A stretch of DNA of 64,000 nucleotides. It comes from an uncultured bacterium. GTDB lineage: Bacteria; Patescibacteriota; Minisyncoccia; Phycocordibacterales; GWA1-40-21. Under the pieces are notes generated by a model. That model worked only from the letters and a program-made list of their open reading frames with translations, was not told the origin of the DNA and ran no database searches. The position numbers were made by a program, and so were the translations under genes. Shown here in pieces: positions 676-18,754 of this stretch. The first letter of the stretch is position 1. The number at the start of each line of letters is the position of its first letter. The stretch covers positions 277,015 to 341,014 of the forward strand of contig CAWDSG010000002.1 in the NCBI GenBank assembly GCA_963804975.1. The letters run 5' to 3'.

Positions 676-1443
676 TCAGAAATTAATACTTGTTCCAAAA
701 ACCCAGTTGCCATTTTGCTGGAACTCCAATGTGCCGACTCCCGGCAACACAGTATCGAGATTAACCATTCTGACCTCGTAGTACAGGAAACCTCGAAGTG
801 TTTTTCCAAATTCAATCCCGATAGGGATTGCCGGAGTAAAATTATCACCCCCGGAGGTATCGAACTTAAAACCTCCCATGCTGAAACTTCCCTTAACTTT
901 CGTATACTCAGCACGGATACCAAAAAATGGATAAATCGACCAGCTATCGCTGATGCCATCAAGCGGATAGCATTTCAGGGCCAATGCGACCGGAGTGTAC
1001 ACATGAATCGTATCTAAACTCGATCCATATACATCCATTGTGATATCCTGTCCACCCAAGTTCAACAAAGTTTCCAAAGCGATATATTTGTATTTAACAT
1101 GAAGAAAAAATTCAGGTTCAGCCGATTTGGTATTCAGAAATTGAAACCCCATCGGCAAAGTGCCGGCACCGACGGAAGGGAATGATTTCAGATCAAAACC
1201 AAATTGACCTGACCAATCATTTTTCCGCGCAACTTTGGTGGCTGTCGGCGTAACCGTTTTGCTTGGCGTTGGTGTTACCACCTTCGCTGCCGGTTTAATG
1301 ATTTTCTTCTTTTTTGTCGGAGTCGTATGATTCCTTGATACACTTATGGAAGCTTTTGCGGTCAATCCTTGCGCTTCAACTGAAGAAAAAGAAACAGCAA
1401 AAGCAAAAAGTACCAACACGAATAACATCATTAATTTCTTCAT
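676..1443 (-). CDS. secreted beta-rich protein with OMP-like C-terminal signature
   Basis: N-terminal signal peptide MKKLMMLFVLVLFAFAVSFSSVEA|QG, then a Pro/Thr/Lys-rich linker and a beta-strand-like alternating-hydrophobic body. It ends ...NWVFGTSINF with a terminal Phe and hydrophobics at -1, -3, -7 and -9, as in beta-barrel outer-membrane proteins. Confidence 0.45.
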   Translation of the reverse strand: MKKLMMLFVLVLFAFAVSFSSVEAQGLTAKASISVSRNHTTPTKKKKIIKPAAKVVTPTPSKTVTPTATKVARKNDWSGQFGFDLKSFPSVGAGTLPMGFQFLNTKSAEPEFFLHVKYKYIALETLLNLGGQDITMDVYGSSLDTIHVYTPVALALKCYPLDGISDSWSIYPFFGIRAEYTKVKGSFSMGGFKFDTSGGDNFTPAIPIGIEFGKTLRGFLYYEVRMVNLDTVLPGVGTLEFQQNGNWVFGTSINF

Positions 1444-1670: not shown

Positions 1671-1930
1671 AATAAGAACTTGACATTTTTTGAGATAAAT
1701 TTTTCCAATTTGAAAGAAAATTGAATTTTCACTTGACAATAAAATTGTTTATGATACGATGTTGTCATATTAAGCTCTTTCAAAGATTTTTTACAGGAAT
1801 TATGTAAAAAAGTTCTTTATTTTCTACATGTTTTAAGGTTTTTGTTTGAAACTCACGTATTAGTTTTTTTGATATTTTTCAGTATAAGCAACTCATTTAA
1901 AATTAAATTTAGCAAATTAAAAGCACTTTA

Positions 1931-4900
1931 ATGTGCATTCGTTTTTTAGCCAGTAAAATTATTATGTTTAGCCATTATCAAAAAATAAGCAGATTCTTAG
2001 GCAATATCACAACTATTGTCCTTTTGACCATTGTTGTGTCATTTGGCTTTGTTTCTTTTGCGCATGCTGCTACCACAACACTTTCATATACAGGAGATCC
2101 TATAGATTCTTGGACAGTACCTCAGGGTGTTACTAGTTTGACAGTTAGTTTAACAGCTGGCGGAGGGGGTGGCGCTGGCGGTGCATTCACATTTGGCGGT
2201 GGTGGCGGTGGTGGTGCAGGAGCATCATTTTCTCAAACTATTTCAGTATATCCAGGACAAATAATTGCTTATGTCGTTGGTGCCGGAGGCGTTGGCGGAA
2301 CAAGCGGTTTTATAAATTTTGCTGGCGGCAGCGGTAATGACGGAGGATATACTACATTTGGTACCACAACAGCTTTTGGTGGCAAAGGTGGACAAGGAGC
2401 TACATACGGTCATCCAAATGGAGGACAGGGCGGACTTGCTGGTGGAATTGGAGGAAATGCTGGTACAAAAGGTGATGATTACATTGGACAAAGAAGTTGT
2501 GGCGGAAACGGCGGATCATCTCTTATTGGAAATGCTGGACTTGGCGGTTGTGGTGCTAGCGGTTGGTCTACTCTTCCTACAGCTGGAACAAATGGTGCTG
2601 GTGGTGGAGCAGGAAGTGGATGGGCATATTATGAACATCCTGATATTAAAGATGCAGGAGCAAATGGCGGAAATGGCCTTATTGTTCTTTCATATACTCA
2701 AGATCTTGTAGCTCCAATTATTACAATTCTCGGCTCAAATCCTCTTACTTTGGAAGCAAGCTCAACTGAAATATATATTGATGCCGGTGCAACTGCATTT
2801 GATGATGTAGATGGAACAACCACAGCTACCACAACTTTTAATAACGTAAATCTTGCCGCAACAGGAACATATTCTGTTGTTTATTCCGCTACAGATAAAG
2901 CGGGAAATACAGCGACATCCACAAGGATTGTGAATGTTGTAGATGATATTGCGCCGGTTATTACAGCTCCAGATACTCAAGTGTTTGAAGCTACCGGTGC
3001 AACAACAACTCCAATATTAATACAAGCCGTAGCTACTGACGGTTTCGATCCAAACCCAGTTATTACTTATAATCCTCACGATTTTACCTTGGGAACAACC
3101 ACGGTTGTTTGGACTGCCACCGATTCTTCGGGGAATTCAGCCACAACCTCATCTTTAGTGGTTATAAAGGACACAACTGCTCCTGCAATTGTCCTTAATG
3201 GTTCATCAACAATGTCCTTAATGATAGGCGACACCTATACAGAACTTGGAGCAACAGCTTATGATTTGGTAGACGGAACGACAATAGTAAATACTATAGG
3301 AACTGTTGATACAAATGCTACCGGAACATACCAAATTCTCTATACTTCTAGCGACAATTCTGGAAATACAGCTATAACTTCAAGAACAGTAATTGTAACT
3401 GCAACACCAGATACTACAGCTCCGGTTATAACAATTCTTGGAAATAATCCAGAAACTATAACTCTCGGTTCAATTTATACAGACGCCGGTGCAACTGCAC
3501 TTGATAATATTGACGGCGATATCACTTCAAGAATCGCAAGTTCAAGTGATGTAAATACTTCTGCAACAGGAACATATTCTGTGATTTACACAGTTTCTGA
3601 CAATGCAGGGAATGGTGCAACCTCTACAAGAATTGTAGATGTTGTTGCAACAGCACCAATACTTTCATCAATTAGTATTTCACCTTTGAACCCAACACTT
3701 GCGGTAAGCGCAACAACAACGTTTGTCGCAACAACTTTGGATCAGTATGGAAATCCTTTTGCAACGACAACTGCTTGGAATAGCTCAAATACTTCAGTTG
3801 GAACAATAGATGCAAGCGGAATCTTTACCGCGCTTTCAGAAGGAACAACAACAGTTACAGGAACAACCGGAACACTTTCAACATCAACAATGGTAACTGT
3901 AACCCCAGTTTCTGTCCTTGATACAACTGCGCCAACAACCCCTGTGATAACTGGAGTTAGCGCAACAAGCACGATTGTAAATCCAGCGATTATCTCATGG
4001 ACCGATTCAACAGATTCTCAATCAGGACTTGCGGGCTATTTATATGAAATAACTATTGTTCATCCAAGTATGATAGCAACAACAACAGGCGGCTTGACCT
4101 TCATTACTGCAACAACAACGAGTTTTGATCTTGCTTCCATAACTTCTGGAAAACCAAACCCATATTGGTTTAATGTTGCTGCTATTGATAATGCTGGAAA
4201 TATCTCAACAACGACAAGTTACGGTCCGCTTCTTGTGTCTGATTCTCAGGTATTGATTGAAAATTCAAATCTTGGAGGTACATTCTATACAATATATTCA
4301 CCAACACTTGTAAATTCTCTTCTTGCACCAGTTGCAACAACAACAGGTACAACAACAATAACAAATTCCACACTTTCAACATTCTGGGATGTAAATAATT
4401 CAAGCATTACAAACACAACGATCAACGATGTAAATTTGGATGCAGTTACAGTAACGAATTCAACATTAATAAATTCTGATATAGCGAGATGCATCGTCAT
4501 AAATTCTCTTGTAAAAAATTATTATGCTAGAGATTGTCATATTGCATACTCAGTACTTGACCCGTCAACTTTGTACGATTTCATAAATTCAACAAGTACA
4601 AATTCACAAATTTATGCTTCAGATATTTATGATTCTGTAATATCAAATCATTCTTATATTGCTACATCAACAATTACAGGTTCAACAATAGATTCTTCAA
4701 CAATAACTTTGAGTACTATCGCAACCTCAACAATTACAGGTTCGGTTATTGCAAATAGCGACATAACACTTTCAACAATTACTGATTCTACAGTTTCATC
4801 ATCAACACTCACAAACGTTGTTTCCGCAAGCTCAACCATTACAAATACTGTATTGTCAGATGCAACAACCACGAATGCAGTAATACATGATGGTATTATT

Positions 4901-7900
4901 GACAGTGGAACAATAATAATAGGTGGAAACACTTATGTTATTACAACACCAACACTGATAAGTTCACTTGTTCCAACAGTTGTGGTTACTCTTGCATCAA
5001 CCACACCTGTTTCAGGAAATATTACCGTAGGACAATCATCTGTTGATCTTGCAGAATTCACATTTACAAATAATTCTGCGACTTCCGGCGAGATAAACCA
5101 AATTACATTAACGAGAACGGGATCATCAACAGATACGACTTTATCGAATGTATATTTGTATCAAGGGTCAAATCAAATAGCGTCAGGAATATTATCATCG
5201 GGTCAAATTGTTTTCCTTAACAATTCAGGTTTATTTACGATTGCATCAAATACTTCGGTCACGGTGGCGATAAAAGCCGATGTTTCTCCATCTGCTAATG
5301 TTGGTAACACAATCGGATTTTCTCTCACTCAAATTACAGCGCATTCATTAGCGGTATCAGCAGTATTTCCATTAACAGGTTCTTTGATGACTGTTGTAGG
5401 AACAACTTCTGTTCCAGTAACATCTATCTTAGTTAATTGGACAAGTGAAGTAACAACAGTTGATGTTGGTTCAACTTTGCAAATGACCGCAACGGTAAAT
5501 CCATCAAACGCAACAAATAAAAATGTTATATGGTCTGTTGCAAACGGAACCGGATCAGCAACTATCGATTCGACAGGAGTTTTGACTGGCGTCGCAACCG
5601 GAACCGTTATGATTGCAGCTTCATCAACAGATGGCTCTGGTGTTTTTGGAACGACAACAATCACAGTTATCCCAAGCGGAAGTTTGGTACCTGTTATTAC
5701 AGTTATCGCGCCAAACCCATCACCAAACGATAATTCAGTATTATGGATTCACGGAGCTCATTTGGGATTTGCTACTTCTAGCTATACCGCTATCTTTTCT
5801 CAAAACAGCAGTGTTGTAGCAACGACATCTATATCATCTACAAATCCAAGCGGTTCAGATCTTGAAGCTAATTTTCCAATAGGTATTTCAGCCGGAGTTT
5901 ATCAGGTTTCTATTTCTGACCAATATGGTACAAGCAACTCTTTTGATCTTACTGTTACATCATCCGGAACAGTAATTCCAACATTATCAAGCATTACAAT
6001 CACCACTCCGGCAGACAAACTTATCTACACATTAGGCGATTCGCTTGATATCACAGGATTGGTAGTCACAGGAACATATTCGGACGGCTCCACTTCAACC
6101 GAGCCGCTCACTCTTGCCGACGTTTCCGGTTTCGATTCATCTGCCGCATCCTCAAGCGAAACATTAACGGTCACGTATCAAACACAGACAACTTCATACA
6201 ATGTTGCGATTAATCCAACTTTAATGCTCGATTCAATCGCCATCACGCATCCGGCAGACAAACTTATTTATACTGTCGGTGATTCACTTGATATCACAGG
6301 ACTAGTAGTTACAGGAACTTATTCAGACGGTTCAACATCGACTTTGCCGGTCTCAGTTTCAAATATTTTTGGATTTGATTCGTCAATACCAAATCCGAGT
6401 GAAACTTTGACAATTGCTTATGAAGGAAAATATGTAAGCTTGTTTGCTACAGCGACTTATACAATTACAATTAATGCCGGTCCAAGCGGTCCAATTGCGG
6501 TCACAGGAGTTACGGTTAGTCCGACGTCGCTTAATCTTACAGCAGGCGGAGCAACCGGAAATCTGACAGCAAGTGTTATTCCATCAAACGCAACCAATCA
6601 GAATATTTTCTGGAACACTGACAATGCGGAAGTTGCCACAGTTTCAAGCGGAGTAGTCACGCCGATTGCCGCGGGTATAGCAAATATTACAGTCACAACC
6701 GAAGACGGAAGTTTTGTTGCCACAAGCACAGTTACAGTTACAGCAACATCAACACCGCCTCCAACGTTACAAAGCATTGCTATCACTTCGCCTGCAACTA
6801 AACTTTCCTACAACATCGGAGACACTCTTGATATCACAGGACTTGCCGTCACCGGAACTTATTCCGACGGTTCAACTTCAATTGAACCGATCAGCGTTTC
6901 AAACATTTCGGGATTTGATTCTTCAGCTGCAAATCCAAATGAAGTTTTGACCGTTACAGTTAGTGGACTTACAACAAATTATACAGTCGTTATAAATGCA
7001 GGAAGTGTTTCAACTCCGGTCTTATCATCAATTTCCATTTCAGCTTCACCTCTCACTTTGGCAGTCGGTTCAACCACACAATTTACAGCAACAACACTGG
7101 ATCAGTTCGGTGATTCAATACAAGCGACGGTAAATTGGTCAAGCTCAGATACCTTAGTCGGTGATATAGATGCAAGCGGATTATTCACAGCTTCTGCAAC
7201 AGGAACAACTGTTGTTACAGGAACAGCTGGAACATATAGTGCAACTATTACAGTTACAGTATCTGATTTTTCAGACCAAACTCCGGTCCTTTCATCAATA
7301 AGTATTTCGGCTCCATCTTTAACATTAGCTGTCGGTTCAACCACACAATTTACAGCAACAACACTGGATCAGTTCGGTGATTCAATACAAGCGACGGTAA
7401 ATTGGTCAAGCTCAGATACCTTAGTCGGTGATATAGATGCAAGCGGATTATTCACAGCTTCTGCAACAGGAACAACTGTTGTCACAGGAACAGCTGGAGC
7501 AACAACAATATCAGCTACTGTAACAGTATCAGTAATTTCAACAGGAGGAGGTTCAACACCAGTTCCAACATTATCAAGTATTGCAATTACATCACCAGCA
7601 AACAAATTGTCATACAATATTAATGATAGTCTTGATATCACAGACCTTGTTGTCACCGGAACTTATTCCGACGGTTCAACTTCAATTGAACCGATCAGCG
7701 TTTCAAACATTTCGGGATTTGATTCTTCAACAACAACTCCAAGCGAAGTTTTGACAATTAATGTCAGCGGATTGACTACAACTTATACGATTACGGTAAA
7801 TGCCGGTCCAAGCGGTCCAATTGCGGTCACAGGAGTTACGGTTAGTCCGACGTCGCTTAATCTTACAGCAGGCGGAGCAACCGGAAATCTGACAGCAAGT

Positions 7901-8995
7901 GTTATTCCATCAAACGCAACCAATCAGAATATTTTCTGGAACACTGACAATGCGGAAGTTGCCACAGTTTCAAGCGGAGTAGTCACGCCGATTGCCGCAG
8001 GTACAGCGAATATCACAGTCACCACAGTTGATGGAGGATTTGTCGCCACAAGCACAGTCACGGTTTCCGGCGGCAGTTCAACAACCACACCGGTACTCAC
8101 TTCAATAACCATTTCACCTTTGAAGCCAACAATCGTTGCCGGAAATAAAAAAACCTTTACGGGAACTACGCTTGATCAGGACGGCAATCCGTTTGCAACA
8201 GCAATCGCATGGCAAAGTTCCAACACTTCAATCGGCACCATTAATTCAAGCGGAATATTTACAGCGGTTTCAGCGGGAACGACAACAATCACTGCGACTG
8301 CCGGGACACTCTCAGCATCAACAGTTGCAACAGTCACTTCAGCAAGAAATACAAACGGAGGTGGCGGCGCAACAAACAATACTCCTCCTACGATCGTGAT
8401 CATTGGCGATAATCCTGCCACAATCACAGTCGGTGGAACTTACATTGACGCAGGAGCAAATGCATTCGACAGCACAGACAACACAATCACTTCAAGAATA
8501 ATAACTTCAAATAATGTAAACACGGCGATGGCCGGAACATACACGGTGTATTATTCAGTGACCGATAGTTATGGAAATACAACAACAGCAACCCGTATGG
8601 TAAATGTCATTGGTTCAAATAATAACGGAACAAATACAAACAACACTGTAACTTCGGAGACGTCGCAAACTAATGGTGGCGAATCATCAAATTCTTCAGC
8701 AACATTACAAAATAATGGCGGAGGAACAGAAGTCACTTCAGGAACCGGAAACGGAACAATTCCATTCATTGATTTGGGAAATATACTTCCGTCAAAAGTT
8801 TCCACAACGACTTATGTTGCAACAAGCACTGCTTCATCGGGAGTCGCTCAGGTTTCAACCTCAACAAAAGCAGGTTTGCTTGCGGCAGTCGGCCTTGCGC
8901 TCTCAAGCATTCCTAAGAATCTGATTGCGATTATTCTCTCAATTCTTGTGCTGTTGATTGCAGGATATATAATCTACAAGATACAGGAAGATTAA
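1931..8995 (+). CDS. giant membrane-anchored surface protein (2354 aa): Gly-rich N-terminal region, multiple DUF5011-like Ig domains, Big_2 and Big_3-like Ig domains, FN3-like segment, beta-helix-like NST repeat region, C-terminal TM anchor
   Basis: N-terminal TM/signal (ITTIVLLTIVVSFGFVSFAHA). Repeated ILGxNPxTIxxGxxYxDAGATAxDxxDG...ATGTYxVxYxxxDxxGN units (DUF5011-like). Repeated ...LSSISISPL...TTLDQxGNPF...WxSSNTSVGTIDASGxFTA units (Big_2-like). Four Y..GDSLDITGL.VTGTYSDGSTS units. C-terminal hydrophobic anchor LIAIILSILVLLIAGYIIYKIQED. Start uncertain (alternative ATG at 1963). Confidence 0.8.
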   Translation: MCIRFLASKIIMFSHYQKISRFLGNITTIVLLTIVVSFGFVSFAHAATTTLSYTGDPIDSWTVPQGVTSLTVSLTAGGGGGAGGAFTFGGGGGGGAGASFSQTISVYPGQIIAYVVGAGGVGGTSGFINFAGGSGNDGGYTTFGTTTAFGGKGGQGATYGHPNGGQGGLAGGIGGNAGTKGDDYIGQRSCGGNGGSSLIGNAGLGGCGASGWSTLPTAGTNGAGGGAGSGWAYYEHPDIKDAGANGGNGLIVLSYTQDLVAPIITILGSNPLTLEASSTEIYIDAGATAFDDVDGTTTATTTFNNVNLAATGTYSVVYSATDKAGNTATSTRIVNVVDDIAPVITAPDTQVFEATGATTTPILIQAVATDGFDPNPVITYNPHDFTLGTTTVVWTATDSSGNSATTSSLVVIKDTTAPAIVLNGSSTMSLMIGDTYTELGATAYDLVDGTTIVNTIGTVDTNATGTYQILYTSSDNSGNTAITSRTVIVTATPDTTAPVITILGNNPETITLGSIYTDAGATALDNIDGDITSRIASSSDVNTSATGTYSVIYTVSDNAGNGATSTRIVDVVATAPILSSISISPLNPTLAVSATTTFVATTLDQYGNPFATTTAWNSSNTSVGTIDASGIFTALSEGTTTVTGTTGTLSTSTMVTVTPVSVLDTTAPTTPVITGVSATSTIVNPAIISWTDSTDSQSGLAGYLYEITIVHPSMIATTTGGLTFITATTTSFDLASITSGKPNPYWFNVAAIDNAGNISTTTSYGPLLVSDSQVLIENSNLGGTFYTIYSPTLVNSLLAPVATTTGTTTITNSTLSTFWDVNNSSITNTTINDVNLDAVTVTNSTLINSDIARCIVINSLVKNYYARDCHIAYSVLDPSTLYDFINSTSTNSQIYASDIYDSVISNHSYIATSTITGSTIDSSTITLSTIATSTITGSVIANSDITLSTITDSTVSSSTLTNVVSASSTITNTVLSDATTTNAVIHDGIIDSGTIIIGGNTYVITTPTLISSLVPTVVVTLASTTPVSGNITVGQSSVDLAEFTFTNNSATSGEINQITLTRTGSSTDTTLSNVYLYQGSNQIASGILSSGQIVFLNNSGLFTIASNTSVTVAIKADVSPSANVGNTIGFSLTQITAHSLAVSAVFPLTGSLMTVVGTTSVPVTSILVNWTSEVTTVDVGSTLQMTATVNPSNATNKNVIWSVANGTGSATIDSTGVLTGVATGTVMIAASSTDGSGVFGTTTITVIPSGSLVPVITVIAPNPSPNDNSVLWIHGAHLGFATSSYTAIFSQNSSVVATTSISSTNPSGSDLEANFPIGISAGVYQVSISDQYGTSNSFDLTVTSSGTVIPTLSSITITTPADKLIYTLGDSLDITGLVVTGTYSDGSTSTEPLTLADVSGFDSSAASSSETLTVTYQTQTTSYNVAINPTLMLDSIAITHPADKLIYTVGDSLDITGLVVTGTYSDGSTSTLPVSVSNIFGFDSSIPNPSETLTIAYEGKYVSLFATATYTITINAGPSGPIAVTGVTVSPTSLNLTAGGATGNLTASVIPSNATNQNIFWNTDNAEVATVSSGVVTPIAAGIANITVTTEDGSFVATSTVTVTATSTPPPTLQSIAITSPATKLSYNIGDTLDITGLAVTGTYSDGSTSIEPISVSNISGFDSSAANPNEVLTVTVSGLTTNYTVVINAGSVSTPVLSSISISASPLTLAVGSTTQFTATTLDQFGDSIQATVNWSSSDTLVGDIDASGLFTASATGTTVVTGTAGTYSATITVTVSDFSDQTPVLSSISISAPSLTLAVGSTTQFTATTLDQFGDSIQATVNWSSSDTLVGDIDASGLFTASATGTTVVTGTAGATTISATVTVSVISTGGGSTPVPTLSSIAITSPANKLSYNINDSLDITDLVVTGTYSDGSTSIEPISVSNISGFDSSTTTPSEVLTINVSGLTTTYTITVNAGPSGPIAVTGVTVSPTSLNLTAGGATGNLTASVIPSNATNQNIFWNTDNAEVATVSSGVVTPIAAGTANITVTTVDGGFVATSTVTVSGGSSTTTPVLTSITISPLKPTIVAGNKKTFTGTTLDQDGNPFATAIAWQSSNTSIGTINSSGIFTAVSAGTTTITATAGTLSASTVATVTSARNTNGGGGATNNTPPTIVIIGDNPATITVGGTYIDAGANAFDSTDNTITSRIITSNNVNTAMAGTYTVYYSVTDSYGNTTTATRMVNVIGSNNNGTNTNNTVTSETSQTNGGESSNSSATLQNNGGGTEVTSGTGNGTIPFIDLGNILPSKVSTTTYVATSTASSGVAQVSTSTKAGLLAAVGLALSSIPKNLIAIILSILVLLIAGYIIYKIQED
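6481..6672 (+). repeat. about 190-nt intragenic repeat, first copy (near-identical to 7807..7998)
   Basis: tccaagcggtccaattgcggtcacaggagttacggttagtccgacgtcgcttaatcttacagcaggcggagcaaccgg... repeated 1326 nt downstream. The two shadow ORFs 6598..6786(-) and 7924..8112(-) share an identical C-terminal stretch (...VVTVIFA.PAAIGVTTPLETVATSALSVFQKIF). Confidence 0.8.
7064..7507 (+). repeat. tandem duplication (2 x 267 nt) inside the giant gene
   Basis: gtcggttcaaccacacaatttacagcaacaacactggatcagttcggtgattcaatacaagcgacggtaaattggtcaagctcagatacc... occurs at 7064 and again at 7331. About 170 nt are near-identical with single-nucleotide differences. Shadow ORFs 7102..7344(-) and 7369..7656(-) translate identically. 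Confidence 0.8.
7807..7998 (+). repeat. second copy of the 6481..6672 intragenic repeat
   Basis: Near-identical nucleotide sequence; encodes AGPSGPIAVTGVTVSPTSLNLTAGGATGNLTASVIPSNATNQNIFWNTDNAEVATVSSGVVTPIAAG in both copies. Confidence 0.8.
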
Positions 8996-9004
8996 ATTTA
9001 AAAA

Positions 9005-9040
9005 CAAAAAACTGCCCGCCTCACGGCGGGCAGTTTTTTT
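9005..9040 (+). terminator. rho-independent terminator after the giant gene
   Basis: aaaaaaCTGCCCGCCtcacGGCGGGCAGttttttttatttg, followed by a second GC hairpin gcgggcttgcttcgcgcccgc. Confidence 0.7.
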
Positions 9041-9099
9041 TATTTGTGCGGGCTTGCTTCGCGCCCGCCCGCCCAATTTCTTTATTAAATCAATAAAAT

Positions 9100-9981
9100 T
9101 TGCTATCATTCTTCTTTATGGAAATCATTCCTCAACTCATCATGAACAGCATTATCGCCGGAGCGATCTATTCCATAATCGCTCTTGGTTTTAATCTTAT
9201 TTTCAGCACGGTTAAATTTTTTGATCTGGGATACGGGGCGCTTACAGCTGTCGGCGGCTATTCCGTTTTTTTTATTTTTGACAAACTTGGCCTCAATCTT
9301 TGGTTTGCAATAATTGTCGGCATCATAGTCGCTGGACTCATCGGATATCTCATCGACAAGCTCGTTTATAAAAAATTAAGGAAAAGGAAAGCATCGCCGA
9401 TGGTTTTTCTTGTCGCATCACTTGGAGTTTTCACTGTCATTCAAGCGCTTATAGCAATTCTTTTTTCTAGCCAGTTCCAGACATTAAGTCAAGGCAGCGG
9501 AAAAGTTTTCCAGATATTCGGAGCTACTATCACGGAAGTCCAGCTTATTATTTTTATCTGCGGACTTTTGATCATGGGAATTCTCGCAATTGTTTTAAAA
9601 ACCACGAGATTTGGAAAAGCCATAAGGGCGGTGAGCGATGATGAAGAAGTTTCAAAAATCGTCGGCATAAGCACGGACAAAATTATTGGAAAAGTTTTTT
9701 TCATCGGTTCTGCTATCGCTGGACTCTCGGGAATACTCATCGGCTTTGACACCGGAATTGAGCCCACAATGGGCTTTTCACTTCTTTTAAAGGGCGTTAT
9801 CGCTTCCATAATCGGCGGAATAGGGAATATCTACGGCGGAGTTCTGGGAGCTTTTCTTTTGGGTTTTGTGGAAAATTTCGGCATCTGGCAAATCTCCGGC
9901 GAGTGGAAAGATGCCATTGCTTTCGCGCTTCTGATTATCTTTTTACTGTTCAGGCCGAAGGGGATTTTTCCAAAGAAGTGA
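9100..9981 (+). CDS. livH: branched-chain amino acid ABC transporter permease (LivH family)
   Basis: Multi-TM protein; IIPQLIMNSIIAGAIYSIIALGFNLIFSTVKFFDLGYGALTAVGGY matches the LivH/BPD_transp_2 N-terminus. Alternative start ATG at 9118. Confidence 0.75.
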   Translation: MLSFFFMEIIPQLIMNSIIAGAIYSIIALGFNLIFSTVKFFDLGYGALTAVGGYSVFFIFDKLGLNLWFAIIVGIIVAGLIGYLIDKLVYKKLRKRKASPMVFLVASLGVFTVIQALIAILFSSQFQTLSQGSGKVFQIFGATITEVQLIIFICGLLIMGILAIVLKTTRFGKAIRAVSDDEEVSKIVGISTDKIIGKVFFIGSAIAGLSGILIGFDTGIEPTMGFSLLLKGVIASIIGGIGNIYGGVLGAFLLGFVENFGIWQISGEWKDAIAFALLIIFLLFRPKGIFPKK

Positions 9982-10082
9982 TTCAGAATATATCAACAAT
10001 ATAAGTTTGCGTTTGCTATAAAAAATGGTAGATTTTCAATATAAGTTTTAAGTTAAATATTATTAGTTCTAAATTAATTATT

Positions 10083-11216
10083 ATGGAACCAACAAAGAAA
10101 TCTATGAAATGGCTGTGGGGAATAGTTGTGATTATTGCCATTATTATTCTTGCGCTTGCTTCAAGCAAGCCAAAAGAAACAGGACCGATTAAAATTGGGT
10201 TTATTGCTCCTCTTACCGGAGATGCTGCTAGTTTAGGACAAAACTCTCGTGCTGCTGTTGAAATATCAGTAAAAGAAATAAATGATGCAGGAGGTATTAA
10301 TGGCCGTCCGCTTGAAATTATTTATGAAGATGGACAATGTTCAGGCAAGCCAGCATCTGATGCTGCCAACAAACTTATAAATATAGACAAAGTTCCCGTA
10401 ATTATTGGAGGTCTTTGTTCCGGAGAAACCTCTTCTTTCACTGATGCAGCAGAAAAATCAAAAACAGTAGTTCTTTCTTATTGTTCTTCAGCTCCAGCTT
10501 TAACTTTTGCAGGAGATTATATATTCAGAAATTATCCGTCAGATTCTTATCAAGGATCTTTTGCGGCTGATTATATTTATAATAAACTGGGCAAAAGAAA
10601 TGTTGCTGTTCTTTATGTAAATACTGACTACGGAGTTGGTATTAAAGATGTATTTGATAAAAAATTCAAGGAACTTGGTGGGAACCTTCTTGATGAGGAA
10701 AGTTTTAAACAAAACAGTTCGGATTTAAGAACAGAATTAACAAAAATTAAATCTGTCAAACCGGAACTAGTTTATTTTATTGGTTATACTGAAGAAACCA
10801 TACCTGGAATAAAACAAGCAAAAGATTTGGGAATTAATGTGCCGTATTTTGGAGCTGATGCATGGGGTGATTCAAAAATATGGAGTACTCTTGGCTCTTT
10901 GGCTGAAGGAGATATGTATACGATGGTTTATACTCCTTTAAACGATGCTTTCAAATCAAACATGCTGGCAAAAATTGGGAACAATGAAATCACGGTTTGT
11001 ACTCCGCAAGCATATGATGCTGTAAAAATTATAGCTCAAATTATTACAAAAGTAGGTACAAATTCGGAAGCAATAAAAAACGAGCTTTATAAAACAGAAT
11101 ACAAAGGTGGTGTGTCTGCTCCTGACATAAAATTTGATTCAAATGGAGATGTAAATATTCCTTATGTTCTTAAAACTGTTAAAGATGGAAAATTTGTTTT
11201 ACTTCAAAATATTTAA
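10083..11216 (+). CDS. Liv-type (Peripla_BP_6) ABC substrate-binding protein, paralog 1, N-terminally anchored
   Basis: N-terminal anchor/signal MEPTKKSMKWLWGIVVIIAIIILALASS, then IKIGFIAPLTGDAASLGQ...GGINGRPLEIIYEDGQC, typical of LivJ/LivK-family SBPs. Confidence 0.8.
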   Translation: MEPTKKSMKWLWGIVVIIAIIILALASSKPKETGPIKIGFIAPLTGDAASLGQNSRAAVEISVKEINDAGGINGRPLEIIYEDGQCSGKPASDAANKLINIDKVPVIIGGLCSGETSSFTDAAEKSKTVVLSYCSSAPALTFAGDYIFRNYPSDSYQGSFAADYIYNKLGKRNVAVLYVNTDYGVGIKDVFDKKFKELGGNLLDEESFKQNSSDLRTELTKIKSVKPELVYFIGYTEETIPGIKQAKDLGINVPYFGADAWGDSKIWSTLGSLAEGDMYTMVYTPLNDAFKSNMLAKIGNNEITVCTPQAYDAVKIIAQIITKVGTNSEAIKNELYKTEYKGGVSAPDIKFDSNGDVNIPYVLKTVKDGKFVLLQNI

Positions 11217-11245
11217 AATTTATTTATTAATTATTAATTAAAAAC

Positions 11246-12394
11246 ATGGAGCCAAATAAAAATTCAATGAAGTGGGTATGGACAGCGATTGTCATAGTAA
11301 TTGTCGTAATCATTATCGGTGTTTTTACATCCCAAAGTTCGGCAAAGACGGTAAAAATCGGCTTTATCAGTCCGATGAGCGGCCAATCTGCGGCATATGG
11401 AGAATATGCAAGAAGAGCTTTTGAAATCGGCTTGGACGATTGGAATTCAACACATACCTATAAAATGGAAGCGGTTTATGAGGATGGAAAATGCGCTCCG
11501 GCAGATGCCGCCACAGCTGCCAATAAATTGATAAATATAGATAAGGTAAATTTCATAATGACGTTTTGCACGGGGGAAACGAATGCTGTCGTGCCTATAA
11601 CCGAAAGTCATAAGGTTATTCTTTTGACTGCCGGAACCACTGCTCCGAATATCACAAAAGGCAAATATGTTTTCAGGAATATCGGTTCTGTGGGAAGCGG
11701 TCTGCCTAAACTGACGCAGATGGCCTATGACTTCAATAAAAAAATCGCTTTGATATCCGAGAATACCAACTACGCGATTTCATCGAAAGACGCGTTCAAA
11801 CAGCAATTTACTGCTCTTGGCGGAACGGTTGTATTTGATGAATCATTTGACTCAAAAAGTATGGATTTCAGGACAATCATTTCTAAATTAAAGAGTGCCG
11901 GTATTTCCTCTGTTTTTGTCGTTGTTCAAGCACTTGATAATTCTGGATTATTATTCAAGCAGATGAAAGAGCTAAATTATCATCCTCAAATTTTTTCTAC
12001 GGAAGCTGCAATTAGCGACAAATCTCTAGAAAAGTACATAACGGAAGGATATGAGAATATTATTGAAGGAGCAATTCTCATCACTCCTTACTTCGACAGG
12101 ACAAATTCAATAGCGGCTCACTTGTTAGGTGTGTATCAAGACAAATATCAATCAACAAAAGGCCCTATTCCTGAAGAATACCTAGCGACGCATTATGATG
12201 CTGTTTTTTTGCTCGGAGACGCTTCAATGAGTGTCGGGACAAATTCGGATTCAGTCAGGCAATATTTCCTGACAAAAATTAAAAATTGGCAGGGGGCAAT
12301 CGGCAGTTTCAGCTTTGATGCAACCGGCGATGCCGTAACAAGCGTAGTCGCCGAAACCGTTAAAGGCGGAAAAATTGTTCCCCTCACAAAATAA
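11246..12394 (+). CDS. Liv-type ABC substrate-binding protein, paralog 2
   Basis: Same architecture: TM anchor, KIGFISPMSGQSAAYGE...YEDGKCAPADAATAANKLINIDKV. Confidence 0.75.
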   Translation: MEPNKNSMKWVWTAIVIVIVVIIIGVFTSQSSAKTVKIGFISPMSGQSAAYGEYARRAFEIGLDDWNSTHTYKMEAVYEDGKCAPADAATAANKLINIDKVNFIMTFCTGETNAVVPITESHKVILLTAGTTAPNITKGKYVFRNIGSVGSGLPKLTQMAYDFNKKIALISENTNYAISSKDAFKQQFTALGGTVVFDESFDSKSMDFRTIISKLKSAGISSVFVVVQALDNSGLLFKQMKELNYHPQIFSTEAAISDKSLEKYITEGYENIIEGAILITPYFDRTNSIAAHLLGVYQDKYQSTKGPIPEEYLATHYDAVFLLGDASMSVGTNSDSVRQYFLTKIKNWQGAIGSFSFDATGDAVTSVVAETVKGGKIVPLTK

Positions 12395-12419
12395 TTATTA
12401 ATTATTAGTTTAAAATATT

Positions 12420-13550
12420 ATGGACCAAACAAAAAGCAATGCAGGGAAGTGGGTGTGGGGGATTATCATAATAATTATTTTGATTGTAATTTTTTCTCTA
12501 TCCGGTGGGAAAAAAGAAACCGGCCCGATAAAAATTGGGGTTATTACGCCTCTTTCTGGGGACACTGCTTTATATGGGGAGGTGGTAAGAAATAGCATTG
12601 AATTGGCAGTAAAAGACATAAATCTATCTGGCGGAATAAACGGCCGACAAATACAAACGATATACGAAGATAGCAAATGTTCGGGCAAGGAAGCTGCTAC
12701 CGCTGCACAAAAATTAGTTAATATAGATAAGGTTAAATATATCATTGGCGACTTTTGCAGTGGAGGAGTTCTTAGCGAAATTCCAATAACAGATCCGGCA
12801 AAAGTTTTTGTTATATCTCCTTCAGCATCAGCGCCTAAATTGTCAGGAATAAGCAAATATTTTGTCAGAAATTCTCCTAGCGATTCTATCACAGGAATTA
12901 TTCTTGCTGATTATCTTTTAAAAATGAAATATAAATCAGTAGCGATTATATCCGAGCAAACCGATTATGCTCAGGGTATAAGAGATGTATTTATAGCACA
13001 AGCTCAGAAAGATAATCTAACTGTCACAGCTAATGAAAATTTCGTCTCGGGAGTAACCGATTTTCGTTCTCAGCTTTCAAAGATAAAAATTCAAAATCCT
13101 GATGTATTATTTATTAATCCTCAGAGTCCGGTTAGCTTAGTGCAAATTGCCGAGCAAGCAAGGGTACTTGGCATTAAATCTCAATTTGTCGGGTCATTGG
13201 GCGGAACTGATCCAAATCTATATACAAAATACACTCAAGGTATGATTTTTGCCGATTTGACCGGTTTAACAGGTGATAAAGGCAAAGAATATATGAATAA
13301 GTATATTGCAGCGTATAATGTTGCTCCTAATATTCCGTTATATGATGGGGCAGCGTATGATGATGTTTACTTGATTACGCAAGCCATATCTTCTGTTGGA
13401 GATGATTCCACTAAAGTTGCGGAATATTTGCGAGCAATGCCTAGCTACACTGGCGTCCTTGGTACATATCACTTTGATAAAAATGGGGATCTCGTCGGAG
13501 CCGGTATAGTAATGCAAAAAGTATCTGGTAACAAGGTAATTGAATTATAA
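12420..13550 (+). CDS. Liv-type ABC substrate-binding protein, paralog 3 (closest to paralog 1)
   Basis: KETGPIKIGVITPLSGDTALYGE...GGINGRQIQTIYEDSKCSGK. Confidence 0.8.
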   Translation: MDQTKSNAGKWVWGIIIIIILIVIFSLSGGKKETGPIKIGVITPLSGDTALYGEVVRNSIELAVKDINLSGGINGRQIQTIYEDSKCSGKEAATAAQKLVNIDKVKYIIGDFCSGGVLSEIPITDPAKVFVISPSASAPKLSGISKYFVRNSPSDSITGIILADYLLKMKYKSVAIISEQTDYAQGIRDVFIAQAQKDNLTVTANENFVSGVTDFRSQLSKIKIQNPDVLFINPQSPVSLVQIAEQARVLGIKSQFVGSLGGTDPNLYTKYTQGMIFADLTGLTGDKGKEYMNKYIAAYNVAPNIPLYDGAAYDDVYLITQAISSVGDDSTKVAEYLRAMPSYTGVLGTYHFDKNGDLVGAGIVMQKVSGNKVIEL

Positions 13551-13636
13551 AAAATCAAAAACCTCTCAAAAAGAGGTTTTTGATTTGGTAATTTTATGAT
13601 AAAATATGAATTCAATATAAAATTTACACTGTAAAT

Positions 13637-14503
13637 ATGGATTATTTAATTCACCTTGCGATTCTGATAGGAATTTATGTAATACTCGGTATTTCGCTCA
13701 ACCTTGTCGTGGGTTATACCGGCCTGCTTTCTGTTACCCAAGCCGCTTTTTACGGAATCGGCGCTTACACCACGGCGATACTTCTGACGACTACAGGAAT
13801 GAATTTTTTCCTGTCGGTCATTGTCGGAATAATAATCACGGCGATTGCCAGCTTGCTTATCGGCTATGTCTTGTCCAAATTCAAAGACGATTATTATGCA
13901 CTCGGTTCCTTCGGTTTCAATATCATCGTTTACAGCATATTCTTAAATTGGCAAAGTTTTACCAGAGGTCCTCTCGGCATTCCGGGAATAAAAAGGCCGG
14001 AAATTTTCGGTTTCAGTTTCAATGAAAATATTTATTTTCTGATTCTCGTCGTTGTCATTGCGGTGATAATTTATTACATCGCAAAATTCCTAGTGAACTC
14101 GTCTTTCGGCAGAGTTTTGAAAACAATAAGGGAAGACGAAGAAGCGATTCAGGTTTTTGGATACAATACTTTGTTTTTCAAGCTGACTATCTTTGTCATC
14201 GGCGCCTGTATGGCAGCGGTTGCCGGTTCGCTTTTTGCCACATACATCACTTACATTGACCCGTCATCTTTTGCTTTAGCCGAATCAATCTTCATTCTTT
14301 CAATAATTATTTTGGGCGGACTTTCAAATAATAAAGGCGCTGTCATCGGGGCTGTTTTTCTGGTCCTATTGCCCGAAATCCTTCGATTTGTGGGCTTTTC
14401 TTCGGACATTGCAGCCCAAATGCGCCAGGTGACTTATGGCCTGATTTTGATATTATTAATGCTGTACAGGCCGCAAGGTTTGATAGGCGAGTATAAGATT
14501 TAG
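13637..14503 (+). CDS. livM: branched-chain amino acid ABC transporter permease (LivM family)
   Basis: Multi-TM protein; GYTGLLSVTQAAFYGIGAYTTAIL is characteristic of the LivM N-terminus. Confidence 0.75.
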   Translation: MDYLIHLAILIGIYVILGISLNLVVGYTGLLSVTQAAFYGIGAYTTAILLTTTGMNFFLSVIVGIIITAIASLLIGYVLSKFKDDYYALGSFGFNIIVYSIFLNWQSFTRGPLGIPGIKRPEIFGFSFNENIYFLILVVVIAVIIYYIAKFLVNSSFGRVLKTIREDEEAIQVFGYNTLFFKLTIFVIGACMAAVAGSLFATYITYIDPSSFALAESIFILSIIILGGLSNNKGAVIGAVFLVLLPEILRFVGFSSDIAAQMRQVTYGLILILLMLYRPQGLIGEYKI

Positions 14504-14540
14504 TTTAGTAAATTTATTAATTATTAATTTAAACTTTGAT

Positions 14541-15680
14541 ATGAAAAGCGTAAAAATTTGGTTCGGTGTAGTAATTGTAATCTTACTGGTTTTGTTAATT
14601 ATAACTCAAACAAAACAAAGCGCTTCGGACAAAACAATAAAAATCGGTTTCATAGGAGCTTTAAGCGGTAACGCATCGGCATTGGGTATTCCTCCCAAAC
14701 AAGCAATTGAAATTGCTGTTCAAGATATAAACGATAATGGCGGTATAGGCGGAAAAAAATTGGAAATTGTCTATGAAGATGGCAAATGCACCGCAAAAGA
14801 TGCTGTTTCCGCAATAAATAAACTAATTAATATAGATAATATAAATATAATTATCGGCGGACAATGCAGTTCTGAAACACTCGGAGCGGCACCTATTGCA
14901 GAATCAAACCATGTTCTTTTAATCTCTCCTATGGCAATGAGCCCGCAAATTACAGGGTCTGGAGATTTTATTTTTAGAACAGTTTATTCAGATCAATTAA
15001 CAGCAGAAAAGCTTGCGACATACGCAGTACAAAATCTTGGTGTTAAAAAAGTGGCTATGCTATTTGAAAAAACCGATTATTCACAGGACTATAAAAAGGC
15101 ATTCCTGAATAAATTCATTGCTCTTGGCGGAGAAGTCGTTTCAGAAGAAGATTATTCGTCAGATGTAACCGATTTAAAAACCGAAGTATCAAAAATAAAG
15201 GCGTCAAATCCGGACGCTGTTGTATTTGTGCCGCAAACCGAGGCCAAGGAAATACTAGGTTTGAATGTGCTAAACGAATTCACTCCAAAAATGAAAGTTT
15301 TATCAAGTATTGTTTTGGAGAAACAGTCGGTATTGGATTTGTCAAAAAATCTTAACCTTAATCTATATTATTCAATACCGGTTTATGACACAGGATCTGA
15401 TGCCGCCAAAAAACTTTTTAACGAATATACCGCAAAATACGGGAAGGTGGATGGAGTTCCGTTTCAAATGTTAAATTCTTATGACACCGTATATCTCTTG
15501 AAATATTTGGTTGAGAATAACGGAACTGATCCAATTAAACTTAAAAATTCTCTGTACAAAGTTAATGGATGGCAGGGAGCGTCAGGAGTATTTAGATTCG
15601 ATAAGAATGGAGACAGGATTTCAGACAACATCGTAATTAATGGCGTTAAAGACGGTAAAATTGTTAGTATAACGAAATAA
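14541..15680 (+). CDS. Liv-type ABC substrate-binding protein, paralog 4
   Basis: TM anchor plus IKIGFIGALSGNASALGIPPKQAIEIAVQDINDNGGIGGKKLEIVYEDGKC. Confidence 0.75.
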   Translation: MKSVKIWFGVVIVILLVLLIITQTKQSASDKTIKIGFIGALSGNASALGIPPKQAIEIAVQDINDNGGIGGKKLEIVYEDGKCTAKDAVSAINKLINIDNINIIIGGQCSSETLGAAPIAESNHVLLISPMAMSPQITGSGDFIFRTVYSDQLTAEKLATYAVQNLGVKKVAMLFEKTDYSQDYKKAFLNKFIALGGEVVSEEDYSSDVTDLKTEVSKIKASNPDAVVFVPQTEAKEILGLNVLNEFTPKMKVLSSIVLEKQSVLDLSKNLNLNLYYSIPVYDTGSDAAKKLFNEYTAKYGKVDGVPFQMLNSYDTVYLLKYLVENNGTDPIKLKNSLYKVNGWQGASGVFRFDKNGDRISDNIVINGVKDGKIVSITK

Positions 15681-15707
15681 ATCTGGCTTGCCAGTTGAAA
15701 TTAAATA

Positions 15708-16460
15708 ATGCAAGTCCTAAAAACCAAATCAATTACAAAACATTTTAGCGGGGTGCATGCCGTGGATAATCTTTCTATTTCTTTTGAAAGCGGGAAAATC
15801 ACCGGCATCATCGGGCCGAACGGCTCGGGCAAATCCACCTTGGTGAATTTATTTTCCGGAATCGTGCCTATCGATAGCGGAACGGTTGTTTTTGACAATG
15901 CAGAGGAATTAAAAAGCATAAAAACTTATGAAATAGCGGATTATGGAATCGTCAGGACTTTTCAGGAAGTCAGATTGTTTGAGCAGATTCCGGTTTTGGA
16001 TAATATTTTGGCGGTCATCACAAAAAGAAATGTCATCGGTTCTATTTTTGAAAAGCACAAGAAATTCCACTTGGACAGAGCGGAAAATGTGCTGAAAAGA
16101 GTCGGACTTTGGGAAAAAAGGCACGAACTGGCAAAAAATCTTTCTTACGGACAGAGAAAACTTTTGGAAATTGCCAGAGTTCTCGCAATGCTGAGCGGGG
16201 AAGGTGTGGAAGGGGAAATATTTTTGTTTGACGAGCCGTTTGCCGGACTATTCCAAGAAATGAAAGATGTCGTCCTCCAAATCATAAAAGAACTGAAAGA
16301 AAAAGGAAAAACCGTCGTTCTTATAGAACATAATATGGAAATCATCAGAAATATCTGCGACCATGTTTTTGTGCTGGATAGCGGTAAGCTATTGGCGCAA
16401 GGATCGCCCGATGAAGTCCTCTCAAAAAAAGAAGTTATTGAGGCGTATTTGGGGAAGTAA
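15708..16460 (+). CDS. livG: ABC transporter ATP-binding protein (LivG-like)
   Basis: Walker A GPNGSGKST, signature LSYGQRKLLEIARVL, Walker B IFLFDEPFAGL. Confidence 0.8.
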   Translation: MQVLKTKSITKHFSGVHAVDNLSISFESGKITGIIGPNGSGKSTLVNLFSGIVPIDSGTVVFDNAEELKSIKTYEIADYGIVRTFQEVRLFEQIPVLDNILAVITKRNVIGSIFEKHKKFHLDRAENVLKRVGLWEKRHELAKNLSYGQRKLLEIARVLAMLSGEGVEGEIFLFDEPFAGLFQEMKDVVLQIIKELKEKGKTVVLIEHNMEIIRNICDHVFVLDSGKLLAQGSPDEVLSKKEVIEAYLGK

Positions 16461-16495
16461 TTGACAAATAATTTAATAAACCATAATATAAAAAT

Positions 16496-17611
16496 ATGGA
16501 ACAAAATAATTTTTCGTTAAAAAATATCTGGGTCTGGATAGTTATTATATTGGTAATCGTTTTGATTCTGGTTTTCGGCAATAATGCAAATAAAAACGAA
16601 ATAAAAATCGGAATGATTTTACCGTTAACCGGGACAGCAGCTCAATATGGGGAACAGCTGAAAGATGGAGCACAGATTGCAGAAAGTGAATTAAAAAATA
16701 CCGGAGCTAATGTAAAAATTTTCTATGAAGATAGCGCAGCAGATCCGACAACAGGTCTTTCCGCTTACAGAAGATTGGTTGATGTAGATAAAGTTGATTA
16801 CATCGTTTCTGCCATGACTCGATCTACACTGCCTTTGCTTGATTCATTAAATAAGGACAAAATTCCCATGATAATGACTCTTGTCGCCGGAGATTGGGAT
16901 AAAACAAAAACTAAATATGCCTTGCGATTCTATCCTACAGCAAGACAATATGTCAGAGGAGATAATTCCGATAAAATTTTGAACGGACTGAAATCAGTCG
17001 GTGTTATAAATGTTAATGATGCGTACGGTCAATCTGTCGTAAAAGAAGTTCAGACTTTTGCAAAAGAAAAAGGCTTTACAGTCGGAATGGTAGAAAGCTA
17101 TTCGGCAAATAATACCGACTACCGTTCAAGTTTATTGAAATTAAAAAATAGCGGTGTGGATTCGATCTTGATGATATCTTCAAGCCCGGTTGAGCTATCC
17201 GGCATAGCAAAACAATATAAGGAATTGAATATCAAACAAAAGCTTTTTGATGCTTCAGTCGGCTTGTCCAATCCAATAATAAGAGAGCAAAATAAAGATA
17301 TTCTTGAGGGCGTAGTCACTAAAGCGACAAAAGCTGAATTAACCAATAAAGATAAATCAGCCCAAGATTTCTTTGATAAATATGAGAAACTATACAATAG
17401 CGAACCGTATTTTCCCGGAATATTTGGCTATGAATCCATAAGATTGATAAATGACTTTAATTCTCAAAATGGCTCTGATTTTGTTGAAAAAGCTTCCAAT
17501 TTGAAATCTATCTCAACAATAATGGGCGATATAAAGATCGACAATTACCAAGAAATAAATCCACCGATATATAATACTGTCATAAGAAATGGAGAGTTGG
17601 TGGAGTTCTAA
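16496..17611 (+). CDS. Liv-type ABC substrate-binding protein, paralog 5 (divergent)
   Basis: TM anchor plus IKIGMILPLTGTAAQYGEQLKDGAQIAESEL...KIFYEDSAADPTTG. Confidence 0.7.
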   Translation: MEQNNFSLKNIWVWIVIILVIVLILVFGNNANKNEIKIGMILPLTGTAAQYGEQLKDGAQIAESELKNTGANVKIFYEDSAADPTTGLSAYRRLVDVDKVDYIVSAMTRSTLPLLDSLNKDKIPMIMTLVAGDWDKTKTKYALRFYPTARQYVRGDNSDKILNGLKSVGVINVNDAYGQSVVKEVQTFAKEKGFTVGMVESYSANNTDYRSSLLKLKNSGVDSILMISSSPVELSGIAKQYKELNIKQKLFDASVGLSNPIIREQNKDILEGVVTKATKAELTNKDKSAQDFFDKYEKLYNSEPYFPGIFGYESIRLINDFNSQNGSDFVEKASNLKSISTIMGDIKIDNYQEINPPIYNTVIRNGELVEF

Positions 17612-17638
17612 AAGGATATAAAATTAATAATTTAAAAT

Positions 17639-18733: not shown

Positions 18734-18754
18734 TTTTGTGCAATAATAGCAAGA

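Follow-up and report, generated by a model that had tools for sequence, protein, structure and literature searches.

Periscope Proteins (SasG, Rib, Sgo_0707 and CdrA) carry a distal head on a stalk of Ig-like domains that ends in a proximal anchor, and the high DNA identity of their adjacent stalk units makes these units substrates for intragenic recombination and changes in repeat number (Whelan et al. 2021, PMC8201768). The families that build the stalks of fibrillar adhesin-like proteins include Big_2 and Big_3 in a published catalogue (Monzon, Lafita & Bateman 2021, PMC8286594). In the fibre of cyanophage Pam3, domains of TNF-like and glycine-rich type form the distal, host-recognising part (PMC9608196). 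Here we describe a gene for a giant surface protein of 2354 amino acids (aa) in a 64,000-nucleotide (nt) stretch of DNA, hereafter the window, from an uncultured member of the Paceibacteria (Patescibacteria, or candidate phyla radiation, CPR). We consider it likely that this gene encodes a fibrillar surface protein, that part of its stalk is an expansion of old paralogous domains, and that short tracts within these domains were recently made identical by intragenic gene conversion.

The giant protein resembles Periscope Proteins in its N-terminal head, Ig-like stalk and predicted C-terminal anchor. Periscope repeats are defined as more than 50 residues at 80% identity or above (PMC8201768), and one domain pair here, Big_2 B1 and B2, falls minimally within that definition, with a period of 89 aa, 87% aa identity, 86% nt identity and two copies only (1.8 by Tandem Repeats Finder, TRF). 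Unlike Periscope Proteins, the giant protein has just these two tandem copies, its identity is patchy (a 152-nt core) and most of its stalk domains are heterogeneous and diverged. Its predicted anchor is a transmembrane helix rather than an LPXTG motif, which was not found at the C-terminus, and its host is an uncultured member of the Paceibacteria rather than a pathogen. Periscope Proteins are, moreover, defined by strain-to-strain variation in repeat number, whereas the giant protein is known from one strain. The likeness to fibrillar adhesin-like proteins (PMC8286594) lies in a long stalk of catalogued families, a terminal non-stalk domain distal to the predicted anchor, and a predicted extracellular location and surface anchor; with seven Big_2 and four Big_3 domains above the Pfam cut-offs, the stalk has the composition given for the class. 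Scans of the protein with Pfam and NCBIfam detected no catalogued adhesive family, and NCBIfam gave only sub-threshold matches. By analogy, the giant protein may work like a periscope protein or fibrillar adhesin, and we do not assert membership in either class.

Identical tracts in diverged stalk domains

The gene and the exact repeats inside it are as follows (positions are those of the window).

1931-8995, plus strand: giant surface protein gene, 2354 aa, by open reading frame (ORF) call; an alternative ATG start at 1964 is possible
6473-6672, plus strand: exact tract 1, copy a, 200 nt, from the Big_3 unit 2/Big_2 A junction into Big_2 A
7799-7998, plus strand: exact tract 1, copy b, from the Big_3 unit 4/Big_2 A' junction into Big_2 A'; offset 1326 nt, or 442 codons
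7064-7215, plus strand: exact tract 2, copy a, 152 nt, core of Big_2 B1
7331-7482, plus strand: exact tract 2, copy b, core of Big_2 B2; offset 267 nt, or 89 codons
6848-6925, plus strand: exact tract 3, copy a, 78 nt, core of Big_3 unit 3
7652-7729, plus strand: exact tract 3, copy b, core of Big_3 unit 4; offset 804 nt, or 268 codons

The initial annotation had reported a tandem 267-nt duplication and a dispersed repeat of about 190 nt, and had called such repeats near-identical. The tandem duplication is recovered by TRF at 7012-7498, with a period of 267 nt and 93% matches; its exact identity ends at 7215 and 7482, short of the 7240 at which the first copy had been closed. The dispersed pair is also real, with limits wider than the 6481-6672 originally given (a repeat search placed it at 6455-6739 and 7781-8065, 94% identical, around the exact tract), and tract 3 is an addition. 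The pairs are thus highly similar, as described, and what they form is a mosaic of three perfectly identical tracts within diverged copies. Exact direct repeats of at least 25 nt in the window consist of these three tracts and one 27-mer, with no others. The 27-nt repeat (35104-35130 and 36074-36100) flanks an OMP-decarboxylase-like gene at 35233-36003.

In a sliding identity profile each pair has a core at 100%, the edges of which fall abruptly to 67-83% within the same domain. We took the codons that encode the same residue in both copies, counted those that differ synonymously, and compared core with flanks by Fisher's test. No synonymous difference was found in the cores of Big_2 B1/B2 (0/49, against 11/25 in the flanks; p = 1.1e-6), Big_2 A/A' (0/65 against 11/25; p = 1.1e-7) or Big_3 units 3/4 (0/26 against 20/41; p = 5.2e-6). 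When the observed mismatches were placed at random, 0 of 20,000 placements reached the observed run lengths. Purifying selection on protein has no power to erase synonymous differences. The synonymous divergence of the flanks, 0.44-0.49, lies within the range of clearly old paralogue pairs in the protein (0.42-0.81). Cores without synonymous change, set in flanks like those of old paralogues, therefore point to short, recent gene-conversion tracts on old duplicates. In our reading, the membrane-proximal half of the stalk is a lineage-specific expansion of Big_3 and Big_2 domains, with old copies whose flanks are near synonymous saturation, and segments of 78, 152 and 200 nt have recently been copied from one domain unit onto its paralogue by non-reciprocal homologous recombination. 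Gene conversion among repeated domains of surface proteins is well known; a search of the literature for concerted evolution of surface repeats in bacteria yielded no paper of direct relevance.

Alternatively, the identical segments could be remnants of freshly duplicated whole domains, as in classical periscope arrays, with no conversion involved. The 267-nt period with its 93% matches is in keeping with this view, as is the Big_3-to-Big_2A junction NAGPSGPIAVTG, which is common to both A-type units. However, recent whole-unit duplication should leave low divergence throughout, and identity instead drops from 100% to 67-83% inside a domain, with 44-49% of the identical-residue flank codons changed synonymously, as in old paralogues. 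Nor did a repeat search in the gene reveal a third paralogue as a possible donor of the diverged flanks, the nearest being 60-78% identical. Fresh duplication of whole units is thus very unlikely, and of the two origins named in the initial annotation, recent duplication or gene conversion, the pattern of identical cores and diverged flanks favours the second.

The paired repeats could also belong to a system of programmed diversification, either a diversity-generating retroelement (DGR), with its template repeat and variable repeat (TR/VR), or a cassette or invertase system for antigenic variation. DGRs occur often in CPR genomes, where they act on surface proteins. The giant gene shares with such targets its status as a CPR surface-protein gene with paired similar repeats of about 100-200 nt, a length like that of TR/VR pairs. 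In contrast to a DGR, its cores are identical and not adenine-mutated, the mismatches in its flanks include every type, involve bases besides A in each copy and fall chiefly in third codon positions, and both copies are coding, in frame, in one ORF. A repeat search found no inverted repeats within the giant gene, and no reverse transcriptase, invertase or integrase was present among the window ORFs scanned. We rejected the gene as a DGR target for its lack of an adenine-specific TR/VR difference and of a reverse transcriptase among those ORFs. Programmed diversification is the least probable of the explanations weighed here, and the antigenic variation proposed in the initial annotation finds no support.

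Selection at the nucleotide level could, in principle, keep the cores identical through an embedded RNA element, an internal promoter or an antisense gene. Antisense ORFs of 80 and 95 aa do lie over B1 and B2 (7102-7344 and 7369-7656, minus strand); such ORFs are, however, an expected by-product of repeated A/T-rich coding sequence. This explanation would have to hold for three unrelated sequences, the cores of Big_2 A, Big_2 B and Big_3, when each is present as exactly one perfect pair and selection would tolerate some change. The orthologues do not conserve the nucleotides of the tracts, their domains being 50-70% identical at the protein level. We regard nucleotide-level selection as extremely unlikely.

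Orthologues, length variation and assembly

The RpoC protein encoded in the window has its best matches, 86-87% identical, in Patescibacteria/Paceibacteria. Gene order around the giant gene is conserved (divergent secreted ORF, giant gene, ychF ... mnmA, ATP-cone/Mrr, UDG, alaS), and the positional orthologues measure 1875 aa (P0007), 1923 aa (P0009) and 2177 aa (P0121), against 2354 aa in the window. A B-type Big_2 domain, the DUF5011 array, the solenoid, the C-terminal helix and the Gly-rich head (50-70% identity) are common to most of them. Their differences lie in the membrane-proximal stalk, and Big_3, present here in four copies, is single-copy or undetected in the other family members compared. 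Across the 21-23 kb of each of three orthologous loci, exact repeats of at least 30 nt lie exclusively within the giant gene and always have an in-frame offset. Patchy intragenic identity thus appears to be a trait of the family.

The tracts of the window gene are direct repeats whose offsets (267, 804 and 1326 nt) are all multiples of 3, and the proposal in the initial annotation that the repeats serve as recombination substrates is mechanistically sound. Unequal crossover or slippage between identical tracts would remove or add 89, 268 or 442 aa, that is, one, three or five whole domains, and every time the junction would be an unbroken chimeric domain. The deletions would give products of 2265, 2086 or 1912 aa. 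Loss or gain of stalk domains would in turn alter the reach of the head from the cell.

One orthologue exists in several lengths. The proteins are P0019/P0121 with 2174/2177 aa, P0018 with 2084 aa and P0020/P0021/P0122 with 1914/1917 aa; identity among them is at least 99.9%, with in-frame gaps of 260 and 93 residues. At the DNA level P0121, P0122, P0018 and P0019 show at most one single-nucleotide polymorphism in about 10 kb apart from the indels. In the 780-nt indel, the long form has a perfect tandem duplication (756 nt of identity) and the short form, on a k141-named contig, has one copy. The 279-nt deletion falls between short direct repeats (8 nt exact, about 17/18 by eye) that code for GTGTST linkers and removes one domain. 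Near-identical assemblies of this orthologue carry one copy of the 780-nt unit, or one domain fewer. The 780-nt difference could be either collapse by a short-k-mer assembler or genuine heterogeneity, and the 279-nt difference is harder to ascribe to k-mer collapse. Together, these indels support both the view of the repeats as recombination substrates and the unreliability of copy number in assemblies of this gene family. The warning in the initial annotation that such repeats make the assembly prone to collapse is apt, as the one-copy version on the k141-named contig and the 756-nt perfect repeat illustrate, and copy number in this family cannot be trusted without spanning reads.

The perfect 780-nt tandem duplication occupies 10999-12534 of locus L001, inside the gene at 6979-13512, and was compared with loci L002, L003 and L004; the orthologue comes from samples ERZ28658130, ERZ27254211, ERZ19979687 and IMG 3300050026. 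Its unit comprises three domains: one of the 'TYTTDGNGYITG' type, one that by eye resembles a cadherin-like beta-sandwich, and a Big_2 domain.

Assembly or polishing error bears on the window gene as well. Its repeat pairs could be merely similar in the genome, their perfect cores being the product of a collapsed unitig or of mis-mapped reads, and the true copy number may differ. Consistent with this, four assemblies of essentially one strain give the orthologue as 1917, 2084, 2174 and 2177 aa, the shortest on the k141-named contig, and a frameshift in the ychF gene of the window suggests an imperfect consensus. The ychF gene is split into ORFs at 19524-20042 and 20071-20622, and tblastn with its orthologue (82% identity) places the change of frame at about 20011-20030, beside an A5 run. 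On the other side, graph collapse requires near-identical copies and cannot convert a difference in about 45% of synonymous codons to identity; a sharp step in similarity would remain, and gene conversion would be needed for it. No k-mer-like size is common to the tract lengths (78, 152 and 200 nt). The ORF is unbroken over its 7 kb, with all junctions in frame and domain boundaries kept, and similar, shorter exact patches occur within the gene in independently assembled orthologues. We consider an artefact of this kind unlikely; intragenic gene conversion would explain the data best even were it older than the perfect identity suggests.

Several observations nonetheless weigh against our interpretation. 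The copy number and the perfect identity of the cores both come from one assembly of one strain, and any length heterogeneity in this gene is a prediction. A reused repeat unitig, or polishing with mis-mapped reads, could have made high identity perfect, and the change of frame in ychF is either a sequencing or assembly indel, in which case the assembly may hold indel errors, or a sign that the gene became a pseudogene very recently. The giant protein, encoded on a 606,401-bp contig, forms a singleton cluster at 90% identity, and it had no close relatives in scans of the GTDB species genomes and of JGI metagenome contigs. The orthologue indels may themselves be assembly artefacts, given that the one-copy form comes from a k141-named contig. 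Only one domain pair is truly tandem and the identical tracts are short, and recombination between them may be rare. Export, anchoring, adhesive function and the binding role of the head are predictions drawn entirely from sequence and modelled fold. Lastly, Gly_rich_2 is not named among the adhesive families in the part of PMC8286594 available to us.

Architecture of the giant protein

The initial annotation had described a protein with a TM/signal segment at the N-terminus, a Gly-rich region, DUF5011-like, Big_2-like and Big_3-like domains, a beta-helix-like repeat region and a C-terminal anchor. This description is correct in its essentials: Pfam finds the four families, the solenoid is reproduced by modelling, and both ends are hydrophobic. 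The five or more DUF5011-like domains correspond to four significant Bact_surface_Ig-like stretches (PF16403, which is DUF5011) and one HYR-like unit at aa 338-413, and the four Y..GDSLDITGL.VTGTYSDGSTS units are the four Big_3 domains. From the N- to the C-terminus, all on the plus strand, the protein is built as follows.

1931-2068, plus strand: N-terminal signal/hydrophobic segment, aa 1-46, ...VSFAHA/ATTT; Kyte-Doolittle maximum 2.32 at aa 22-48, cleavage predicted from sequence only
2069-2698, plus strand: glycine-rich head, aa 47-256, predicted TNF-like plus glycine-rich fold (Pfam Gly_rich_2 4e-13, AlphaFold2, Foldseek)
2699-3646, plus strand: DUF5011 (PF16403) #1, HYR-like unit, DUF5011 #2 and #3, aa 257-572 (Pfam)
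3647-3910, plus strand: Big_2 domain B0, aa 573-660 (Pfam)
3911-4240, plus strand: domain of about 110 aa, aa 661-770, FN3-like by eye only; 45-57% conserved in family members
4241-4960, plus strand: N/S/T-rich beta-solenoid, aa 771-1010, 5-residue strand periodicity (AlphaFold2, Foldseek; weak Pentapeptide_4 match, E 0.0027)
4961-5401, plus strand: beta-rich segment, aa 1011-1157; sub-threshold DUF7354 only, AlphaFold2 confidence (predicted local distance difference test, pLDDT) <50
5402-5671, plus strand: Big_2 domain C, aa 1158-1247 (Pfam)
5672-5965, plus strand: weak TIG-like domain, aa 1248-1345 (TIG E 0.036, under the cut-off)
5966-6481, plus strand: Big_3 units 1 and 2, aa 1346-1517; 64% nt identity to each other, longest exact run 18 nt
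6482-6748, plus strand: Big_2 domain A, aa 1518-1606 (Pfam)
6749-7009, plus strand: Big_3 unit 3, aa 1607-1693 (Pfam)
7010-7561, plus strand: tandem Big_2 B1 and B2, aa 1694-1877, 267-nt period (TRF); 87% aa and 86% nt identity overall
7562-7804, plus strand: Big_3 unit 4, aa 1878-1958 (Pfam)
7805-8347, plus strand: Big_2 A' and B3, aa 1959-2139 (Pfam)
8378-8611, plus strand: DUF5011 #4, aa 2150-2227 (Pfam)
8612-8992, plus strand: N/G/S/T-rich linker, aa 2228-2310, then the C-terminal transmembrane helix and its KIQED tail, aa 2311-2354; Kyte-Doolittle maximum 2.87 at aa 2322-2352

The segments at aa 22-48 and aa 2322-2352 are the only two hydrophobic segments in the whole protein (Kyte-Doolittle). 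Pfam at E ≤ 1 gave no match for aa 661-770. The AlphaFold2 model of the solenoid region (aa ~805-1005) is a beta-solenoid with a strand every 5 residues and a pLDDT of 80-94 in its first half; its fold matches in Foldseek are pentapeptide-repeat proteins and the beta-helices of phage tailspikes. The model of aa 1011-1160 was of low confidence and was left uninterpreted. In the arrangement we propose, the N-terminal signal peptide would direct export and the single C-terminal helix would hold the protein in the membrane, with a stalk of about 20 beta-sandwich domains and one beta-solenoid projecting from the cell and the glycine-rich head at its far, N-terminal end. Judged from the number of domains, such a fibre would be very roughly 80-100 nm long.

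A head predicted to resemble phage fibre tips

Gly_rich_2 (PF21722) covers aa 60-255 and scores 42.4 bits in the whole protein and 50.3 bits in the isolated domain, above its gathering cut-off of 24.3, which places the head in this family. A literature search on PF21722/Gly_rich_2 returned nothing specific. From an alignment of 15 sequences, AlphaFold2 modelled aa 47-262 with a mean pLDDT of 88.3. Searched against the PDB with Foldseek, this model matched the Pam3 fibre (7ypx) at E 1.2e-5 with a TMq of 0.61; further matches were tail-tip proteins of mycobacteriophage Bxb1 (9d93) and the glycine-rich ligand-binding domains of ALK/LTK (E ~2e-3). The sequence profile of the head matched the Pam3 fibre weakly across the whole domain (E 0.15). 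Against 1.84 billion representative proteins, a profile search found only 14 proteins at E ≤ 1e-30, 331 at E ≤ 1e-10 and 7123 at E ≤ 1e-3. Among the weaker matches listed are many proteins of 200-350 aa with the domain at the C-terminus, a placement that would suit phage fibres.

A fold like that of the receptor-binding tips on phage tail fibres is thus predicted for the head, and the modelled fold of aa 47-262 resembles those of Pam3 gp24 (7ypx/7yfw), Bxb1 (9d93) and the ALK/LTK domain. Unlike the phage tips, which end a trimeric fibre at its C-terminus, the head lies at the N-terminus of a cellular, putatively membrane-anchored protein; we saw no fibre chaperone, and sequence identity is only 22-25%. 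In the proposed arrangement, the position of the head opposite the membrane helix makes a binding role the natural inference. The attachment to a host suggested in the initial annotation is plausible from the architecture and from the fold of the head, and stands as a predicted function.

Intragenic recombination among stalk domains is an established route by which adhesins change length and is familiar in stalk evolution; the repeats described here add an example, not a principle. What is specific to this gene is a clean three-tract mosaic, a CPR host and a phage-fibre-like head. The mosaic is sharp enough to preserve, in a CPR genome, a clear trace of gene conversion that is very recent. A more interesting lead than the repeats is the family itself, which, with its phage-fibre-like head, conserved position across Paceibacteria and fast-evolving stalk, is a candidate for an episymbiont host-attachment apparatus. 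One could envision a conserved core-genome fibre for host attachment, its TNF-like/polyglycine head like that of phages and its reach tuned within populations by recombination between converted tracts. We offer this scenario tentatively, and think it more doubtful than probable. If it is true, the host range of uncultured episymbionts could be read from the sequence of the head and the length of the stalk.

Flanking signals and neighbouring genes

Three further features border the giant gene.

676-1443, minus strand: gene for a 255-aa secreted protein with a signal-peptide-like N terminus, divergent to the giant gene and a conserved neighbour
1733-1760, plus strand: promoter-like site TTGACA-16-TACGAT with TG ahead of the -10, from a consensus scan (10/12 matches); a consensus match alone
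9006-9039, plus strand: intrinsic-terminator-like hairpin with a 15-bp stem, 8 GC pairs and a T run, 11 nt past the stop codon

The giant gene is apparently a single-gene unit. Counterparts of the divergent secreted ORF adjoin the orthologous giant genes in L085 (6758-7510, 40% identity), L086 (6702-7583, 60%) and L001 (5380-6270, 28%). In 4/4 species this ORF stands directly upstream of the giant gene and encodes 250-296 aa, with 28-60% identity overall and up to 75% in the C-terminal domain. Its product consists of a signal peptide, a K/P/T-rich linker and a beta-rich C-terminal domain of about 190 aa, and ends in an aromatic residue in 3/4 species. Pfam gave no match for the 255-aa protein of the window, a possible fibre partner.

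Between the giant gene and ychF, at 9100-19480, lies a liv-type ABC uptake cluster of six paralogous Peripla_BP_6 binding-protein genes, two permeases and two ATPases. Six binding proteins are unusually many for a small genome. The cluster is not at this position in the three orthologous loci examined, and it looks like an insertion or expansion. A palindromic stretch, gaaaaatttcaaaagcttttgaaatttttc, found as shared inverted 25-mers, lies at 20184-20215 inside the C-terminal coding part of ychF. The alanyl-tRNA synthetase at 24366-26279 is short (637 aa, tRNA-synt_2c plus tRNA_SAD), as are those of the orthologous loci (596-613 aa). Large surface proteins are also encoded elsewhere in the window, at 36179-39343 and 53173-55845; one of the two combines a DUF5011 Ig-like domain with an LCAT-type lipase domain, and the other contains three TIG and two Big_2 domains, with a peptidoglycan-binding domain at its C-terminus.

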